Part shown: positions 7,930 through 20,205 of the stretch, in pieces
How the letters are laid out: every line of letters begins with the position of its first letter
Numbering within the stretch: the first letter of the stretch is position 1
DNA from: a virus
Length of the DNA: 64,000 bases
IMG/VR virus record: IMGVR_UViG_3300027619_000001
Reading direction: 5' to 3' (one strand)
Notes under the pieces: generated by a model
What the model saw: only the letters and a program-made list of their open reading frames with translations
Database searches by the model: none
What the model was told of the DNA's origin: nothing
Made by a program: the position numbers and the translations under genes

Positions 7930-8121
7930 TTGGTACGCCGCATAACTTTGCACTGTCTCTTGACCACCCCTGAGTCCATACGAGCGGAGATCGAACGGCT
8001 GGGGGAAGACAAACTTAAGATGACGGACACGGGGCTGATACGGATCGTGGACTGGATCATAGAGAGTTTGCGGGAGAGATTGGATAAACTGGAAACGAGA
8101 GAGAAGAGGCCACCGAAATGA
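7930..8121 (+). CDS. Small hypothetical protein
   Basis: Its stop overlaps the next start (ATGA at 8118). The start is uncertain (TTG 7930 or ATG about 8020). Confidence 0.35.
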   Translation: MVRRITLHCLLTTPESIRAEIERLGEDKLKMTDTGLIRIVDWIIESLRERLDKLETREKRPPK

Positions 8122-9029
8122 TCACCAACTATTACGATCTCGTGCAATCCATACTCCCGGCGTGGAACGGGAGACTGGCTGGCCACCACATCGGGTACCT
8201 CGCTGACGGTCACGTTCACCGCGCGGTGCCATATAACGCCGCTGACCTCAAGGTAATGGCCAAGCGCCTCTCCCTGATGCGCGCCGCCGGATTCGACATG
8301 CTGATCGAAACCTGGCAGGGACCGTGGGCGACGGCGTGCCATGCGGACGCGATAGCCAACTCGGCATTGTGTACCGAGATGGGAATGCAGTTTGCGCTCC
8401 TTCTCGATCCGGGTGGGATGCAGAAATGGCTCCCCAATCAGTCCCAGGCTACGATCACCGCGAATGTTGTAGCTGCACTGGAATCAGCCGCGCCCATGAT
8501 TGCCGCATCCAGCTATGTCCCCGAAAAATTCATTCTCGATTTCAATACGGGAGCTAACTTGTCAACGTTGGCGAAGGCATTTCCGAGCTACAACTTTCTC
8601 GCGCAAGGATCGGGATTTAGTTGGATCTCTATTCCTAAATTAAACTCGAAAGCGTACTTGTCTCCGGATGATCTCTCGTGCAATTCCCTATCCGTTGCTA
8701 ACCTCAAATCCCAGCACTCCAACCCCGCCATGAAGGTTGCGAGTTTCTGTTTCGAGTTCGATGACTCGGGGATGCCACTACCATCGGGGGTGCAATCGAT
8801 GGCGACGTTTCTGGCGGCGGGCGGCAACCGGGACTTTACGCAGTCCTGCTGGGGTGGGCCAGCACGACGGTTATACTCTTACTCCGGCCAGTTCGCGCGG
8901 CAGCAGATTGCGACAATCAACCCAAGCACACCGATTATCGCAGCGGTTACGATTACAGACTACGACGAGAATACCGCGCTGGAGCCCAAATTAGCCGAGG
9001 CCGCAGGAGTCAACTGGAGCACGCTGTAA
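8118..9029 (+). CDS. Hypothetical protein, possibly glycoside-hydrolase-like
   Basis: 303-aa ORF coupled on both sides. The segment AAGFDMLIETWQGPW...MQFALLLDPGG is TIM-barrel-like only by impression. Confidence 0.4.
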   Translation: MITNYYDLVQSILPAWNGRLAGHHIGYLADGHVHRAVPYNAADLKVMAKRLSLMRAAGFDMLIETWQGPWATACHADAIANSALCTEMGMQFALLLDPGGMQKWLPNQSQATITANVVAALESAAPMIAASSYVPEKFILDFNTGANLSTLAKAFPSYNFLAQGSGFSWISIPKLNSKAYLSPDDLSCNSLSVANLKSQHSNPAMKVASFCFEFDDSGMPLPSGVQSMATFLAAGGNRDFTQSCWGGPARRLYSYSGQFARQQIATINPSTPIIAAVTITDYDENTALEPKLAEAAGVNWSTL

Positions 9030-9400
9030 TGTGGACCTACGTCATATCCAACGGCTACCTTGGCCACGATGGCCAGCATATCGATACCGGATACAGTGGC
9101 CACCCCCCGTATGTGAACGATGTAACCGCAATCGCGATCAGGAATGTCGGCCCCCTGCCAACGGGATTCTACACATTTGACGCCGCCATCGACAGCCCGC
9201 AACTCGGCCCGTGCGCGATCCCACTCACACCCGACCCGGCCAACTTTATGTTCGACCGATCCGGTTTCTTTGTGCATGGTGATAAAGTGGAAGCCCCCGG
9301 AGCCCATCTCGCGTCCGACGGCTGCATGATCTTCGGACACTCTACCCGCATGATGATCGATTTGAGCACCGATAAACAGTTGCAGGTGGTAGCATATTGA
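9029..9400 (+). CDS. Tlde1/DUF2778-like (YkuD-fold L,D-transpeptidase/carboxypeptidase-like) protein; endolysin candidate
   Basis: TAATG coupling to the upstream gene. GPLPTGFYTF...FFVHGDKVEAPGAHLASDGCMIF matches the YkuD catalytic pattern H-x(13-17)-S-x-G-C. Confidence 0.55.
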   Translation: MWTYVISNGYLGHDGQHIDTGYSGHPPYVNDVTAIAIRNVGPLPTGFYTFDAAIDSPQLGPCAIPLTPDPANFMFDRSGFFVHGDKVEAPGAHLASDGCMIFGHSTRMMIDLSTDKQLQVVAY

Positions 9401-14018: not shown

Positions 14019-16223
14019 TCAGTGTTTCGCCGCTCCCCAGCTTGGCCCAAAATCGCCCTCCGCCTCTAGCGGCACCCTCAGCTGCGTCGTCGTTGTCAGC
14101 GCCCCTATCACCACTCGATGCACCAACTCCCGGCACTCCGGCTCATCCGGCAATTCGTGAATCACTTCATCATGAACGGGCAGTAAAGGCTCCACCCCCG
14201 CCACGCGCCTCAACCCATCCCACATCGCCATCATGGCGCGTTTCAGTATCGTATTCGCACTAGTCTGGATCAGATGCGCGTACGAGCACCTCTCGGCTTC
14301 CGCTCTTACCTTGGGAATCGGCGACCATATCTGAGGCAGATATCTCATCCTGCCACTCAGGGGATCGACCGCCAATCCAGTCGCTCTGGTTCGCTCCATG
14401 CAATCACTCTGAAACCGTTTCGCGCCGGGGTAGATCTCATACCACGTATCGAGCATCGACTGGCAATCGTCTTCGGTCCATCTCGATCCGTCCTGCCGGT
14501 ACGCGCGGAACTTGATCATCTGGATACGCAGCCCGTATGCCTGGCCGCCGTTGATGATAAAAAAATTGACCACCTTCCCGGCCTGGCGCTGGTACTTTTC
14601 GATCCGCGATATCGGAGTTCCAAACATATCCGACGCCGACCGGGTATGCACGTCCCATTTCAGCTTCTCATCGTCCTTTGCCTCATGGCCCTTGATGAAT
14701 ATCTCGCACAACTTCTCATCCCGCGACAGATGCGCGAACGTTCTCATCTCCACGGTACTCAAATCGGCATCGTGAATTACTTTGCCCTCCGGTGCCACGA
14801 ACCCATATCGGCATTCCGAGCCCAATTCCGACCGCACCGGGATGGACAGCAGATTCATCGGCTCGGCGGTGGATATCCGGCCCGTGACTTGTCGAGTGAG
14901 TTTGAATGTCGCTCGTGCGCGCCTATCCCCAGTGGACGCCATCAACCTCAGCGGCTTGACATACGTGCCCTTGAGTTTGCTGGCCTCGCGGTAATCTTCG
15001 ATATGCTCGATGATCGGGGATAACGGTAGCAACTCCTCCAGACACTTATCGTCGGTAGACCCCCTCACGTCCCCGGACTCCCCGCCATCCGTCATGCGCG
15101 GTGGGGTCAATCCCAGTCCCCCCTTCGATACCGGACTGTACAACAATTCCGCTACCTGATCTCCCGAGCCGGGATTGATATCGCGCCCGGTTGCTTGAAA
15201 TATCCGCCACTTCGCCACCTCCATCTGGTTATCGCATTTGTCGTCCAGCGCATCCCAGAACTCCGGCCCCGCGAGTCCAATCCCCACCGCGGACATCCGG
15301 TCAATCATGGGAACGATCCCGTGGTCGATACGGCAGGCTTCCTCCAATCCCATAGCTTTGACTTTTTCGATCAATGGCCGCGTGATCCGGAATTGTGCGT
15401 CGGCATCGCGGCTGCCATATCGAATTGCCCTATCGATATCGATATCGTCCATCGTTGGCGTGGGCATGTCGCCAATCACCGCTATGACAGGTTCCTTGGC
15501 GGCATCGGTCAATTTCATCCACCGCTTGCGTGGATCAACGGGCGAGCCGTCCTTGAGTACTTTCCCCGACTCCACGTCGGCGATAATCCGGGTGACCAGC
15601 TTGCCGACGCCTTGGGGCTTTTCTACGCGGGTGCCGTTCCCGTCAGACACGATCTCGGGCTCGGGCTCAGGCCATGACTGGATGAGAGTCGATTCGGGCT
15701 CGGGAGGCGGCTCCAGTGTCGGTGCAGATCCTTCCTTGGCCTTCTTTCTCTTCTTCTTTATCTTTGCCGCCAACTCCACCCACGGCGCGTCCACCGCCGA
15801 TGCCACTCTCCTCAGATACTCCATCGCGATCCCGTGCCCCACATCCCCGATCAGATCGCTATAGTCCTCCTGATGCATCCCGGCGTGACGGTAGCACAAC
15901 GCCTTCAACCCGCCCGGTTCCACGCATAGCAGATACGCGAGTATCCCGGTATCGACAAACGGTATGTCCTCGCCCGCGATATCGATGCCCATGCCGCGGA
16001 GTTGCGCGAAGTCATTGAGCATCGCGTAGTGGAGAGAGACGAGCACGCGGTCGCGACTCGCGTATAACCAATCACGGAGTTTGCGTACAGCCACGGTATC
16101 CGTGGATCGGATCATGTACCCGGTACCGGGACGGAGGGAGATTTGCGCCGACCACGGTTGATCGGGAGAGCCTTCGCAATCAATCCCCACGATGATACGA
16201 TTGCCGATATCCAGCAGGCTCAC
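14019..16223 (-). CDS. polA: Family A DNA polymerase with 3'-5' exonuclease domain
   Basis: Exo I GIDCEG. Motif A DLSTVEMRTFAHLS. Motif B RQAGKVVNFFIINGGQAYGL. Motif C LLPVHDEVIHE. GTG start overlaps the upstream stop (GTGA). Confidence 0.9.
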   Translation of the reverse strand: MSLLDIGNRIIVGIDCEGSPDQPWSAQISLRPGTGYMIRSTDTVAVRKLRDWLYASRDRVLVSLHYAMLNDFAQLRGMGIDIAGEDIPFVDTGILAYLLCVEPGGLKALCYRHAGMHQEDYSDLIGDVGHGIAMEYLRRVASAVDAPWVELAAKIKKKRKKAKEGSAPTLEPPPEPESTLIQSWPEPEPEIVSDGNGTRVEKPQGVGKLVTRIIADVESGKVLKDGSPVDPRKRWMKLTDAAKEPVIAVIGDMPTPTMDDIDIDRAIRYGSRDADAQFRITRPLIEKVKAMGLEEACRIDHGIVPMIDRMSAVGIGLAGPEFWDALDDKCDNQMEVAKWRIFQATGRDINPGSGDQVAELLYSPVSKGGLGLTPPRMTDGGESGDVRGSTDDKCLEELLPLSPIIEHIEDYREASKLKGTYVKPLRLMASTGDRRARATFKLTRQVTGRISTAEPMNLLSIPVRSELGSECRYGFVAPEGKVIHDADLSTVEMRTFAHLSRDEKLCEIFIKGHEAKDDEKLKWDVHTRSASDMFGTPISRIEKYQRQAGKVVNFFIINGGQAYGLRIQMIKFRAYRQDGSRWTEDDCQSMLDTWYEIYPGAKRFQSDCMERTRATGLAVDPLSGRMRYLPQIWSPIPKVRAEAERCSYAHLIQTSANTILKRAMMAMWDGLRRVAGVEPLLPVHDEVIHELPDEPECRELVHRVVIGALTTTTQLRVPLEAEGDFGPSWGAAKH

Positions 16224-16922
16224 AGTACGCTCCTGAGTATCGCATCCAATTCCTTCTCCTTGACCATCCGGTAATCGAGATCGGATTCGGGCACATCGTC
16301 CTCGACGGGGGATATCTCCTCATCCAACAACCGACCAAGCGACTGCACATCGTCAAAAACGAGGTTCAAGCTGTCCGCTGAGTGCGCCGCCGACGCCGGA
16401 TGAATCATCGGGAGCACGATCCATTCCCCTTCCAGTTCCCCACCGAATAGTTCAGTCACTCGGATCGGCACACCATGACATTTATCCAGCTCCGGCTTGC
16501 GATACAGCACATGCTCGACCGACCACGCGCCGATTAACACAATCACTCTCGGCGCGCATAACAGTATCTCGGCCACGAGTTCATCATGATCGTCGGCGAT
16601 ATCCTGCGCGGTTGGCTTTTGGTAGTCGCGGTAGGATTTCACCAGATTTGTAACGTATAACGATGCGCGATCGATGGCAGCGGCTTCGAGACATAGATTG
16701 AGATATTTCCCCGAGATACCGACAAACGGTTTACCTTTACGCGCCTCTTCAAAGTCCGGGCCGTTCGCCGATCAACATGCAATCGGCTGGAACAGGCCCT
16801 TCTCCCGGTACTCGTTTTAGCGGTCGGTTGGCGAACGGATCAAACTTGCGAAATGACGGGCGTGCCGGCGTTCCAGTGTCGGGAAACGGTGGATCGAAAG
16901 AGGTAGGCGATTGGGGAGGCAT
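16220..16922 (-). pseudogene. UDG-superfamily (family 4/5-like) gene in two frames joined at CTT TGA (16754..16749): programmed +1 frameshift, 1-nt error or pseudogene
   Basis: ORF A runs from ATG 16922 to TGA 16749 and ends ...PADCMLIGERPGL*. The +1 frame continues EEARKGKPFVGISGKYL...VLPMIHPASAAHS down to 16220. Joining them gives the canonical GE.PG-x8-PFVG spacing. Confidence 0.55.
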
Positions 16923-16928
16923 AGGCGA

Positions 16929-17348
16929 TTACAGCCTGCACGTCTGGATTACCTGGTTATCACTGTTGTAAACCTCAACCACTCCATCGAACAGCGCGTT
17001 GTCCACGAGCAGCCTCACTCCGATAAACTCGACCGCTACCAGTTGTTCGGTGGACATGCCCGCAGTGTCGATCTCACATGGGTTTACTCTCTTCAACAAT
17101 TCATCCCGAGTCGGTTGATTCATCTTCATGTACGCGGCGATCTTCTTGCGCGGGTAGACGGTATCAATGGCATCCAGAGAGGCTTTAATGGACGCGAGAT
17201 CAATACGCGGCGCGGGCTGCGACCGAGTAACAGTCCCCATGTATTGCAGCAGGTTGTCATGCTCGGGCCGAGTGGGTATCTCAATTTCACCTTCCGGCCA
17301 AACGCCGATCTCGGAGATGTGCATGTACCGCTTCGGATCGTCTGTCAT
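16929..17348 (-). CDS. Hypothetical protein
   Basis: ATG 17348 overlaps the upstream stop (ATGA). The track start at 17399 is probably too long. Confidence 0.5.
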   Translation of the reverse strand: MTDDPKRYMHISEIGVWPEGEIEIPTRPEHDNLLQYMGTVTRSQPAPRIDLASIKASLDAIDTVYPRKKIAAYMKMNQPTRDELLKRVNPCEIDTAGMSTEQLVAVEFIGVRLLVDNALFDGVVEVYNSDNQVIQTCRL

Positions 17349-17656
17349 TCCACCCACCCCTCCACAGGCAATATCGTCACAAATCTCGCATTCGTCCAAC
17401 GGAACACTTCCCCGTCGTACAACTTTTTGATGTAGTACACCGTCTCCAGAGGCTCCGGCATCCCCTCTTCTTCCTCATTCCACGGTGGCTCATCTTCTTC
17501 TCGCGGATACGGTTCCCGTGTGATCTTATCGAGGAACCCGATCGCGTTATCGACTTTCAAGTAATCATACGGACCCGGATGTGGCTTGTCGCCCTGCCGC
17601 CACCATCCAGCAGTGGATGTCTCGATCACCACATCTCCGGGCTTGGGTGCTTCCAT
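17345..17656 (-). CDS. Hypothetical protein
   Basis: 103-aa ORF coupled to the next gene. Confidence 0.5.
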   Translation of the reverse strand: MEAPKPGDVVIETSTAGWWRQGDKPHPGPYDYLKVDNAIGFLDKITREPYPREEDEPPWNEEEEGMPEPLETVYYIKKLYDGEVFRWTNARFVTILPVEGWVE

Positions 17657-17731
17657 ACGGTGATAGCGGCGGGTATTCGATGGACAGGAATTGCCGACAT
17701 GTAAATCGCGGTCGGTGTCTTGGTGTCGGTT

Positions 17732-18517
17732 TCAGCGTCCTGTGCCATTCCCATTTCCCCCGTGCAACGCTCTCACTATTTTCTGCGCACTCAATTTCCC
17801 GATACCGTCTATGGATGCCCAGTCACTCTCACTCGCACTCACCATGTCAGCGACACTCTTAAATCTCGCCGCCACAGCCGCGCTCCTTGTCCTACCCACA
17901 TTCGGCAACTGAGCCGCGATCATCCGGCTGATTGACGGGCGCACGAGCAGTGCTCTGTCAAACAATTCTCCGCGCATGCTGTCATACACCGCGAGATGAC
18001 TTTCATGCTCGTCCCATCCCCGCGTCCACCAACTGTGCAACACCTGGACCCAGTTCGCGGCCATCTCGTAGTCGTCCACGATAGCCACCCTCACGCCGGC
18101 CTTGTGAGTCAAAGTATGCAGCCACATCTGGAGATCATGCCAGAGAAAACTCCTCCGCCTGCCGTGACTCGCATCCTTCCAGTACCCTTCGGATTTCCCC
18201 CGCTGAACCTGATACTCCAAAACTCCATCCCGCGCCCGCGCCCGGAATACGCCAATCACCAGTAACCAAACCTCATCGTAGGTCTGTAACATGCCCGGCA
18301 ATTGATGTCCGCTAAATCTGCTGTCCTGAATACAGGCGAGTAAATCTCCCAAAACTTTTACCTCGGCGGTCACTGTCAAAGGCACGCCTCGCGGGCCAGT
18401 ACCACAGAACGCAACGTCACCGAACTCCAACCGTCCCAACTCCACGGGCACGCCACGCCGACGAAGGAGAGGTTCCAATTGTGCCGAGCCCGCGCGGGGA
18501 TCAATCGTTATGCACAT
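17732..18517 (-). CDS. ERCC4 (XPF/Mus81/Hef)-type nuclease with C-terminal helix-hairpin-helix
   Basis: FGDVAF...TAEVKVLGDLLACIQDSRFSGHQ fits GDx(n)ERKx3D...Q. C-terminal HhH: SIDGIGKLSAQKIVRAL. Confidence 0.6.
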   Translation of the reverse strand: MCITIDPRAGSAQLEPLLRRRGVPVELGRLEFGDVAFCGTGPRGVPLTVTAEVKVLGDLLACIQDSRFSGHQLPGMLQTYDEVWLLVIGVFRARARDGVLEYQVQRGKSEGYWKDASHGRRRSFLWHDLQMWLHTLTHKAGVRVAIVDDYEMAANWVQVLHSWWTRGWDEHESHLAVYDSMRGELFDRALLVRPSISRMIAAQLPNVGRTRSAAVAARFKSVADMVSASESDWASIDGIGKLSAQKIVRALHGGNGNGTGR

Positions 18518-18692
18518 CGGAAGCCATCTGCTCCTGTTCCTGTTCCTGTTCCTGTCCCGCCTTCACCAGCCAATTATGTGCGTCCGCTATCGACCCGAAA
18601 GGCCCAATCGGATGCGGGAGATCCCAGTCCCGGACGTAGTATCCGAGTTTTAATCCCGGTCCGCCCCGCTCGAAATCAATACGCTGTTTCAT
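18501..18692 (-). CDS. Small protein with (EQ)4 repeat
   Basis: 63-aa ORF. The hexanucleotide repeat ctgttc x4 at about 18531..18555 encodes EQEQEQEQ. Confidence 0.4.
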   Translation of the reverse strand: MKQRIDFERGGPGLKLGYYVRDWDLPHPIGPFGSIADAHNWLVKAGQEQEQEQEQMASDVHND

Positions 18693-19551: not shown

Positions 19552-20205
19552 TTACAGAATTCCTTTCTCGACCAATTTAGGGGACTTTTTAGCGAACCAG
19601 TCCCGTACTCGTATAACTCTCCAACCACCGGATACAGCGTAGGCATCACGCTCCGCATCACGTTTTATCTGCAATGGCTGTCTGTGTTCCGGACCATCCA
19701 CCTCAATAACAAAACGACTAACAGGATCGGCAAAATCGAAGGCATAGGGGCCTATCATAAATTCCGAAAAGTAGCCTAAAGGCTCAAGGATCGAACGGAA
19801 GAGGCCATGAATTCCCCCTTGGGATTCTCTACGCGCCTTGCATAGATTACTGTGCCCCACAAGACTGCTCTTCATCGTTTCCCTAATTTTTGATTTGGTG
19901 GATTCCGATCTCGGAGGGTGAGGCAGGCCCTTCAACGCCCACGATATATTGCGCTTCCTTTCTTCCGAAAACACTTTACCTCTACACGCTTCTGAAATAG
20001 CCTTTCTATGCGCCTCTGTCAGCCGCCTACCTCGTAAGTGTTTTTTAGGCACACCCAGCGCGGACGCCGACATTTTAGCCCTTACCTCCTCCGGCACAAC
20101 TCTTCCCCGCAGGGATTCTGATATACGGCGACGTACCTCATCAGATACACGGCTCCCCTTTTTCACGTTACAAAATCCCCCGATCCACCAATTTGTCTTT
20201 CGCAT
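19552..20205 (-). CDS. Free-standing homing-endonuclease-like protein: five NUMOD3 repeats plus a Vsr/DUF559 PD-(D/E)XK nuclease domain
   Basis: Repeats: SDEVRRRISESLRG, PEEVRAKMSASALG, TEAHRKAISEACRG, SEERKRNISWALKG, SESTKSKIRETMKS. C-terminal domain: YAFDFADPVSRFVIEVDGPEHRQ...RDAERDAYAVSGGWRVIRV. Visibly more AT-rich than its flanks. Confidence 0.65.
   Translation of the reverse strand: MRKTNWWIGGFCNVKKGSRVSDEVRRRISESLRGRVVPEEVRAKMSASALGVPKKHLRGRRLTEAHRKAISEACRGKVFSEERKRNISWALKGLPHPPRSESTKSKIRETMKSSLVGHSNLCKARRESQGGIHGLFRSILEPLGYFSEFMIGPYAFDFADPVSRFVIEVDGPEHRQPLQIKRDAERDAYAVSGGWRVIRVRDWFAKKSPKLVEKGIL

Follow-up and report, generated by a model that had tools for sequence, protein, structure and literature searches.

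Organization of the split UDG gene and its neighbours

The window considered here is a stretch of 64,000 nucleotides of viral DNA (IMG/VR record IMGVR_UViG_3300027619_000001), and on its minus strand a gene of the uracil-DNA glycosylase (UDG) superfamily is divided between two reading frames. The 5' part of the gene (16749..16922) opens with ATG at 16922 and aligns with the N-terminal regions of relatives that are not interrupted; it comprises 57 codons ending in ...CMLIGERPGL, the final leucine being encoded by CTT at 16754..16752, and this codon is followed immediately by an in-frame TGA at 16751..16749. The 3' part (16220..16750, minus strand) lies in the +1 frame and runs as EEARKGKPFVGISG ... 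HPASAAHS ... SVL to a TGA at 16222..16220. This frame is open from 16771, and from the GAA at 16750 it reads EEARKGKPFVGISGKYL...HPASAAHS..., such that skipping T16751 yields a joined product of 233 amino acids. On re-reading of the sequence every coordinate given for these features in an earlier note on this DNA was confirmed, as was the placement of the break exactly at CTT TGA. The first start codon within the 3' part is a GTG at 16642, with none earlier, and the 140-aa ORF found in public databases is therefore an artefact of the break. Neither the 233-aa fused protein nor the 57-aa ORF was present in the protein collection by exact look-up.

The UDG gene adjoins a gene for a family A DNA polymerase (PolA) of 734 amino acids (14019..16223, minus strand; Pfam DNA_pol_A, E=6.4e-72) that is intact and collinear with its relatives. 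The GTG start of PolA at 16223..16221 overlaps the UDG stop codon (GTGA), and the earlier assignment of a UDG-superfamily gene beside PolA is borne out. An AGGAG Shine-Dalgarno (SD) sequence at 16230..16234 on the minus strand, 6 nt upstream of the GTG, makes PolA independent of ribosomes arriving through the UDG frame, and its expression should be unaffected by the break. On the other side lies a gene with no Pfam match and no assigned function (16929..17399, minus strand), the TAA of which, at 16931..16929, is followed 6 nt later by the UDG ATG. This upstream gene is conserved in relatives L047-L050, two of which (L049 and L050) represent a 96.4%-identical sister strain whose contigs end at window positions 16835 and 16850, approximately 90 nt short of the junction.

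Together the two ORFs make up a single domain, as had been proposed. The joined protein matches Pfam UDG (PF03167) with 79 bits, above the gathering threshold of 24.3 (E=4.6e-22), and the match covers residues 39-182 in one stretch that includes the junction, across which family 4 UDGs from the PDB also align free of gaps. The spacing of eight residues between GERPG and PFVG that had been noted for the fusion recurs in the nearest relative (GERPG-LEEARRGK-PFVG). Motif A (GE[AG]PG, here the Arg variant GERPG), the PFVG.[AS]G motif (PFVGISG) and motif B (HP[SA], within HPASAAHS) are all present, and the residues invariant in the clade are E53, G56, P65, F66, G68, G71, N92 and H174. Matches to solved structures of family 4 UDG and UdgX reach E-values of 1e-20 to 1e-23, and the phage protein shares with these families (TIGR00758, TIGR03914; PDB 4zbx, 1ui0, 6ail) the GE.PG, PFVG.SG and HP[AS] motifs as well as the conserved Asn in TNLVK, although its motif A has Arg in place of Ala or Gly. 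Scores against the curated family models fall below their cut-offs: 91.8 bits against 125.3 for TIGR00758 (family 4 UDG, NCBIfam), 88 against 250 for Arch_udg and 82.5 against 190 for the UdgX domain. In the family 4 UDGs of Thermus thermophilus and Sulfolobus tokodaii four cysteines ligate a 4Fe-4S cluster. Unlike in 4zbx, the cysteines of this cluster in the N-terminal CxxC and in VKC are not conserved in the phage clade, where, in the part of the profile alignment that covers them, the CKKC and VKC positions of 4zbx face residues other than Cys (f..a, vks). Apart from the break, the gene is a well conserved one for a family-4-like, putative uracil-DNA glycosylase.

Many relatives encode UDG and PolA in a single ORF of 870-1309 amino acids (L006-L009, L011, L024, L026 and L029). 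The SP-15-like, UDG-fused family A polymerases of phages likewise carry the UDG domain N-terminal to, and the present gene lies directly upstream of, the replicative PolA. Unlike those fusions, both the window and its closest relatives have UDG as a separate gene, with the 4-nt overlap to polA; sequence similarity to the characterized SP-15-like fusions is low, and the phage UDG is also broken. A profile of the clade gives a weak match to residues 11-147 of 9qhs_A, a putative Pol I of 1142 amino acids (E=3.3e-6), and SPO1-type polymerases match at 28-30% identity. The nearest annotated phages provide protein-level matches only, at no more than 34% identity, and at the DNA level the 4.6-kb region matched none of 50,697 phage records; the phage is uncultured. 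A scan of genome_contigs found no relatives and hence no clue to a host or prophage, and there are no tRNA genes in the window.

A single additional T at the junction

Comparison with related loci places the lesion at one nucleotide. Among 44 homologous proteins (about 30 distinct sequences; about 29 of the proteins are 45-78% identical), every one crosses the junction in a single ORF, and none has a stop codon or change of frame there; the same holds for 11 loci from IMG/VR and 31 from metagenomes. In a pairwise DNA alignment the nearest relative (L002) reads CCCGGAC-TTGAAGAGGC where the window reads CCCGGACTTTGAAGAGGC, with a single gap in the T run flanked by identical bases, seven upstream (CCCGGAC) and ten downstream (TTGAAGAGGC). 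The GGA CTT GAA GAG of this relative is thus the window sequence minus one T, and L024, also uninterrupted, likewise has GGA CTT GAA; both have TT where the window has a TTT run (16751..16753, minus strand). The residue that follows GERPG differs among relatives (L, Y, E, R, Q, F, S, K, A or M), so there is no conserved CUU. The earlier note had proposed a programmed shift of the prfB type, against which stand the single ORF and the lack of CTT TGA at all 44 loci, an outcome that the note itself had named as refuting; the insertion or genuine pseudogene that it offered as an alternative is what the comparison with relatives shows.

Both halves of the gene are otherwise intact. Relative to L002 they are under purifying selection, with dN/dS of 0.07 for the 5' part and 0.10 for the 3' part at saturated dS. 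The T is the sole lesion in the gene, which points to a recent event, and the junction is the only break of frame in the approximately 8 kb of the window that proteins of the relatives cover. Short relatives (183-191 amino acids, starting MLIGERPG) were considered as further breaks and set aside, the upstream part being in frame in L003, as expected of a gene-caller's choice of start. A candidate second frameshift at a start-less stretch of 264 nt before 9029..9400 was likewise dismissed as chance; the ORF there matches its PHROG from end to end (1-121/121).

The additional T is probably real, that is, present in the phage DNA. DNA from JGI 3300001087 and a MEGAHIT (k127) contig in ENA from run ERR1700735 are both 100% identical to the window and carry the same T, and protein records place the same 140-aa product on contigs of 15,438, 102,720, 102,748 and 102,762 nt (JGI, ENA, Logan), although these assemblies may stem from one read set or from replicate samples of one site. 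Consensus-level indels in a run of 3 nt are very rare with Illumina HiSeq sequencing. The source project, on forest soil, used this platform (PMC5525643), and with the same T in two other assemblies the suggestion of an assembly error now appears unlikely. No intact allele of this phage was found in a collection of 15 billion proteins, and scans for the exact junction pattern with either TT or TTT gave 0 matches in viral_contigs and metagenome_contigs.

Comparison with known +1 frameshift sites

The resemblance to the frameshift site of prfB (release factor 2) drawn in the earlier note holds for the CUU UGA core and the +1 reading beyond it, and fails for the SD stimulator, the base after the stop codon and conservation. 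As in prfB, CUU stands directly before an in-frame UGA, here forming CUUU with T16751, a functional protein continues in the +1 frame, and re-pairing of the same tRNA-Leu from CUU to UUU would restore the frame. An SD-like stimulator (AGGGGG-NNN) before the CUU and a C after the stop codon are both near-universal at prfB sites (PMC12421855). Unlike these, the phage site has no AGGGGG-type element 3 nt upstream of CTT, the nine preceding bases being CGGCCCGGA with no purine-rich run at -9..-4, and A takes the place of C after the UGA. At the 13 real gene ends in the window that have TGA, the stop is most often followed by A (TGAA, 5 of 13), and TGAA so acts as a normal terminator context. SD-like sequences precede about half of the genes in the window, from which it follows that the host ribosome uses SD pairing. 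A fold of 16690..16800 gave z = -0.98, which is not significant and indicates no stimulatory local structure, and the CTTTGA hexamer shows no enrichment, with 34 copies in the window against 26 +/- 5 expected. The phage site further differs from that of prfB in that it is not conserved in orthologues, comes about trivially from one T placed into CTT GAA, and has no autoregulatory logic, its product not being RF2.

Other precedents are partial. Work by Zimmer and colleagues from 2003 is said to have described +1 frameshifts in the capsid and tail genes of Listeria phage PSA, reportedly at the 3' ends of these genes, where they give C-terminally extended structural proteins as part of normal expression. 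The present case is like these in being a +1 frameshift in a phage gene and unlike them in that the break interrupts an enzyme within its catalytic domain. The SD-less prfB sites of some Flavobacteriales, such as Winogradskyella psychrotolerans, support a few percent of +1 shifting in the absence of a functional SD; in Flavobacterium johnsoniae the frameshifting at SD-less CUUUGA sites amounts to 2-12%, and comparable levels can be attained in E. coli by slippery sequences on their own (PMC10798248). The Flavobacteriales sites are the best model for any rescue of the phage UDG, although they are conserved in prfB, retain UGA-C and are autoregulatory, whereas the phage site occurs in one genotype only.

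Origin and consequences of the frame break

Taken together, these data make it probable that a recent, genuine and lineage-specific insertion of one T has crippled the UDG gene, with the prfB-like core as a by-product. Under this reading the ancestral codons would have been CTT GAA (Leu-Glu), and expansion of TT to TTT at 16751..16753 on the minus strand would convert them automatically to CTT-TGA-A; since CTT TGA would arise automatically from duplication of the T, it would be no evolved signal. Standard decoding would then produce a peptide of 57 amino acids ending in motif A, and, with the rest of the domain lacking a start codon of its own, the gene would be functionally crippled, a recent pseudogene. 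The sole route to full-length UDG would be a spontaneous +1 slip of tRNA-Leu on CUU_U during the pause of the ribosome at UGA. Such unprogrammed slippage might be expected to rescue a few percent of full-length protein at most, because there is no SD stimulator and the stop is an ordinary UGA-A.

Several observations nonetheless sit uneasily with simple loss, and they are the substance of a less likely explanation, in which the site is a newly born and used one: an accidental, SD-independent +1 site, with the phage now depending on slippage at CUU_UGA for a useful supply of replisome-associated, full-length UDG. On this account the allele would survive because no other insertion in the gene can be corrected by the ribosome, and it would also lower the output of UDG relative to PolA. 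Of the distinct run-expanding insertions, only 1 in 530 yields a CTT-TGA from which slipping by +1 recovers the ancestral protein exactly (1 in 2098 for insertions of any kind), and 26 runs in the UDG gene are longer and more mutable; such a coincidence is easier to reconcile with a frameshift retained for its leakiness, albeit it was judged post hoc. Rescue might not be negligible if the levels seen at SD-less CUUUGA in F. johnsoniae, and from the slippery sequence in E. coli, apply (PMC10798248). The retention of the gene in every relative, often fused to PolA, argues that its loss is costly, the two halves are otherwise intact, and with no intact allele in the protein collection it is the genotype with the T that assembles. 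Set against this, the site is known from a single genotype and shared by none of the 44 relatives, it lacks the SD stimulator and has the ordinary UGA-A context, and the UDG-PolA fusions of the relatives imply a 1:1 stoichiometry that is beyond the reach of a slip of a few percent.

That the phage genome in fact has TT and an unbroken UDG gene of 233 codons, the T being an artefact of sequencing or assembly, is more doubtful still. A change of one base in homopolymer length is a classic type of error, every relative is intact, and the T-bearing contigs, being 100% identical, may trace back to one library, or to sister libraries, within a single forest-soil project; but such indels are very rare in HiSeq libraries, the T recurs in JGI and in ENA/MEGAHIT k127 assemblies with the same 140-aa ORF on four contigs of 15,438-102,762 nt, and the neighbouring approximately 8 kb has no other break of frame. 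An evolved and regulated shift of the prfB type, by which UDG synthesis would be matched to RF2 levels of the host, has the CUU UGA core and a productive +1 continuation in its favour. It is nevertheless highly improbable: the site is conserved at 0 of 44 related loci, an SD-like element at the spacing needed, a C following the stop and a local structure are all absent, and one T in CTT GAA accounts fully for CUU-UGA.

If, as seems probable, the insertion has disabled the gene, its significance is mainly a matter of annotation: the 140-aa "UDG" ORF that public protein collections list for this phage is a fragment, and the locus is best annotated as a frameshifted UDG and not as a gene with programmed frameshifting. 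Duplicating one T within adjacent Leu and Glu codons suffices to create the CUU-UGA core, which on its own is therefore weak evidence of recoding when neither conservation nor stimulators accompany it. Should the site instead prove to be newly born and in use, it would represent a recoding signal caught at birth, with no stimulator evolved as yet, and would provide a natural example of how +1 sites may originate, from leaky mutations that are first tolerated and only later optimized.

The divided UDG gene and its surroundings

The window is phage DNA, with genes for a terminase and a portal protein. On the minus strand, six bases after the stop codon of the preceding gene (TAA, 16931..16929), an ATG at 16922 opens a 57-codon ORF (16922..16749) that ends in ...ADCMLIGERPGL, with CTT (16754..16752) as its last sense codon and TGA (16751..16749) as its stop. 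The +1 frame, free of stops from 16771, carries the remainder of the gene, EEARKGKPFVGISGKYLNLCLEAA ... VLPMIHPASAAHS ... SVL, from the GAA at 16750 to a TGA at 16222..16220, which shares a GTGA overlap with the GTG start of a 734-aa family A DNA polymerase on the same strand (PolA; Pfam DNA_pol_A, E=6.4e-72). All of this agrees with the earlier note, which had described two ORFs, broken at CTT TGA, of a UDG domain beside PolA. Skipping T16751 yields a 233-aa protein, and the HMM search that the note had proposed matches it to Pfam UDG (PF03167) in a single stretch, residues 39-182, spanning the junction (E=4.6e-22). The product also matches the NCBIfam models for family 4 UDG, archaeal UDG and UdgX, all under their curated cut-offs, and a profile of its clade aligns with solved family-4 UDGs without a gap over the junction (4zbx, 2.8e-23; also 1ui0 and 6ail). 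The two ORFs are therefore halves of one UDG domain, and the UDG of the clade is family-4-like. Its motif A holds Arg or Lys, GE[RK]PG, in the homologue alignment (A1), GERPG being among the clade's forms. In the 4zbx alignment neither the CxxC near the N-terminus nor the cysteine of VKC, which fall at Fe-S ligand positions of archaeal family-4 UDG, is present in the clade, and it may represent an Fe-S-free family-4-like lineage.

The first start codon of the 3' part is GTG 16642, already past motif A and PFVG.SG. The 140-aa "UDG" that begins there (16220..16642, minus strand) is found in JGI, ENA and Logan gene calls (proteins P0006 and P0045); it has neither motif and is an artefact of the frame break, while the 57-aa 5' ORF is called nowhere in the public gene calls.

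The replication module further includes an ERCC4-HhH nuclease, a helicase and a NUMOD3/DUF559 homing-endonuclease-like gene, the last a 217-aa ORF (19552..20205, minus strand) with NUMOD3 motifs and a Vsr-like DUF559 endonuclease domain that is probably a free-standing homing endonuclease. UDG and PolA form one ORF of 870-1309 aa in many relatives (L006, L007, L008, L009, L011, L024, L026, L029 and L031; for example, UDG at L006:4001-4603 within a 1209-aa ORF), are separate with a 4-nt overlap in the window (14019..16922), L002 and L004, and have an HNH_3 homing-endonuclease gene between them in L003. Since both states occur in the clade, UDG-PolA fusion or fission has taken place repeatedly. 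The fused arrangement corresponds to a recently described phage PolA subfamily joined to an active UDG, which removes dU in front of the advancing fork (bioRxiv 10.1101/2025.03.26.645540); the profile of the clade has a hit to PDB 9qhs, at only E=3.3e-6, and SPO1-type polymerases give matches of 28-30% identity. Hexanucleotide-type short repeats at 18480..18560 (both strands) give low-complexity peptide tails, the ERCC4 protein ending in GNGNGTG and an overlapping 63-aa ORF reading EQEQEQEQ, and at L003:3850-3900 a (G/S)T repeat is inserted where the N-terminal tail of UDG is variable. A second frameshift candidate at 8765..9400 (plus strand) was rejected: the 123-aa ORF there matches phrog_24118 end to end, and the 264 nt by which the frame of 9029..9400 stays open upstream, over the end of the gene at 8118..9029, are open by chance.

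The junction in relatives and the reality of the extra base

Forty-four homologues came out of a search over 5.8 billion proteins, and about 29, at 45-78% identity, are single ORFs over roughly 80-99% of the fused query. The nearest (P0001, 78% identical) reads CLLIGERPGLEEARRGKPFVGISG, as does the conceptual fusion product, and its DNA (L002) has CCCGGAC-TTGAAGAGGC for the window's CCCGGACTTTGAAGAGGC, the sole difference in this stretch being one T in the T run. At the DNA level 11 IMG/VR and 31 metagenome loci, with L002-L004 added, gave 44 loci of about 30 distinct sequences; the frame is uninterrupted at the junction position in all of them (stop or frame change, 0/44). When the relatives' ORFs were placed on the window by tblastn, the frame change mapped to 16752..16759 each time, and no other frame break shows up over the ~8 kb of window that relatives' proteins cover.

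The same T lies within 100% identical DNA on L001, which is a contig of 15,438 nt in the assembly of JGI sample 3300001087, and on a 102,748-nt MEGAHIT contig from ENA run ERR1700735 (L047, L048), and the exact 140-aa product also occurs on contigs of up to 102,720 nt (JGI) and 102,762 nt (Logan and ENA). With Illumina HiSeq, an indel in a run of 3 nt is very unlikely to reach the consensus. That platform was used for PRJEB8420, a forest-soil survey whose data are held at JGI too (PMC5525643). An intact allele of this phage was absent from the protein collection, an exact look-up of the 233-aa product was negative, and there were no homologues between 78% and 100% identity. Given the two other assemblies, the platform, the lone frame break and the missing intact allele, the T is very probably real, on the basis of assemblies that possibly share libraries, and the assembly error entertained in the earlier note is unlikely. 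The 102,720-, 102,748- and 102,762-nt contigs are nearly equal in size across JGI, ENA and Logan, which suggests a complete phage genome of ~102.7 kb whose ends differ by assembler k-mer overlap. A sister strain from run ERR1700723 of the same soil project (L049, L050; 96.4% identical) aligns to 16835/16850..18692; two independent assemblies of it both stop inside the 5' UDG part, ~90 nt before the junction, low coverage and strain variation being possibilities.

Origin of the CUU-UGA and its decoding

The resemblance to prfB lies in a CUU directly before UGA and a continuation in the +1 frame; it does not extend to the other elements of that site. Across >8,000 genomes the prfB site almost universally has a C following the stop and a purine-rich SD-like sequence of the AGGGGG type whose end lies 3 nt before CUU (PMC12421855). 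The window has no SD-like stimulator upstream of CTT, the sequence there, CGGCCCGGA, coding for the conserved RPG of motif A, and no C after the stop; its TGA-A is the commonest TGA context at real gene ends in the window (5/13). SD-like sequences precede about half of the larger window genes (background 10%), so the host ribosomes do rely on SD sequences, and the lack of a stimulator carries weight. Local RNA folding is no better than that of shuffled sequence (z = -0.98). The programmed shift proposed in the earlier note is contradicted by relatives that are single ORFs without CTT TGA in 44/44 cases, neither the two frames nor the junction being conserved. GERPG is followed by Y, E, R, L, Q, F, S, K, A or M, and thus there is no conserved slippery CUU; L024 also has GGA CTT GAA, uninterrupted. 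The ancestral codons were CTT GAA (Leu-Glu), in which a duplicated T gives CTT TGA A automatically, and the prfB-like core is explained without selection as the product of this particular insertion.

Standard decoding would yield a 57-aa peptide, and with the first start of the 3' part lying beyond both motifs, reinitiation could not give a functional UDG. PolA should still be made, since it has its own AGGAG (16234..16230, 6 nt upstream of its GTG). The sole route to full-length UDG would be a +1 slip at the UGA in which the P-site tRNA-Leu leaves CUU and re-pairs with UUU. In Flavobacterium johnsoniae, CUUUGA sites that lack an SD shift frame at 2-12%, against about 50% at the E. coli site with its SD (PMC10798248), and by analogy with the former a rescue of a few percent is plausible. 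It could be argued that the frameshift persists because it is leaky: when all single-base insertions were enumerated in the reconstructed intact gene, a CTT-stop at which a +1 slip restores the ancestral protein arose from 1/2098 distinct insertions and 1/530 run-expanding ones, and the gene has 26 longer runs that are expected to mutate more readily. This is a coincidence judged after the fact; it does speak for persistence through leakiness, a reading that on the whole seems unlikely.

Relative to L002, dN/dS is 0.07 in the 5' part and 0.10 in the 3' part, with dS saturated, and both halves have evolved under purifying selection; as the T is the sole lesion in the UDG gene, the event is taken to be recent. 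The alternative also raised in the earlier note, a one-base insertion or pseudogene, fits the absence of the T from relatives. What explains the findings best is the recent insertion of one base in this lineage, an ordinary mutation that left a pseudogene or at most a leaky allele of a gene of known kind in a known arrangement.
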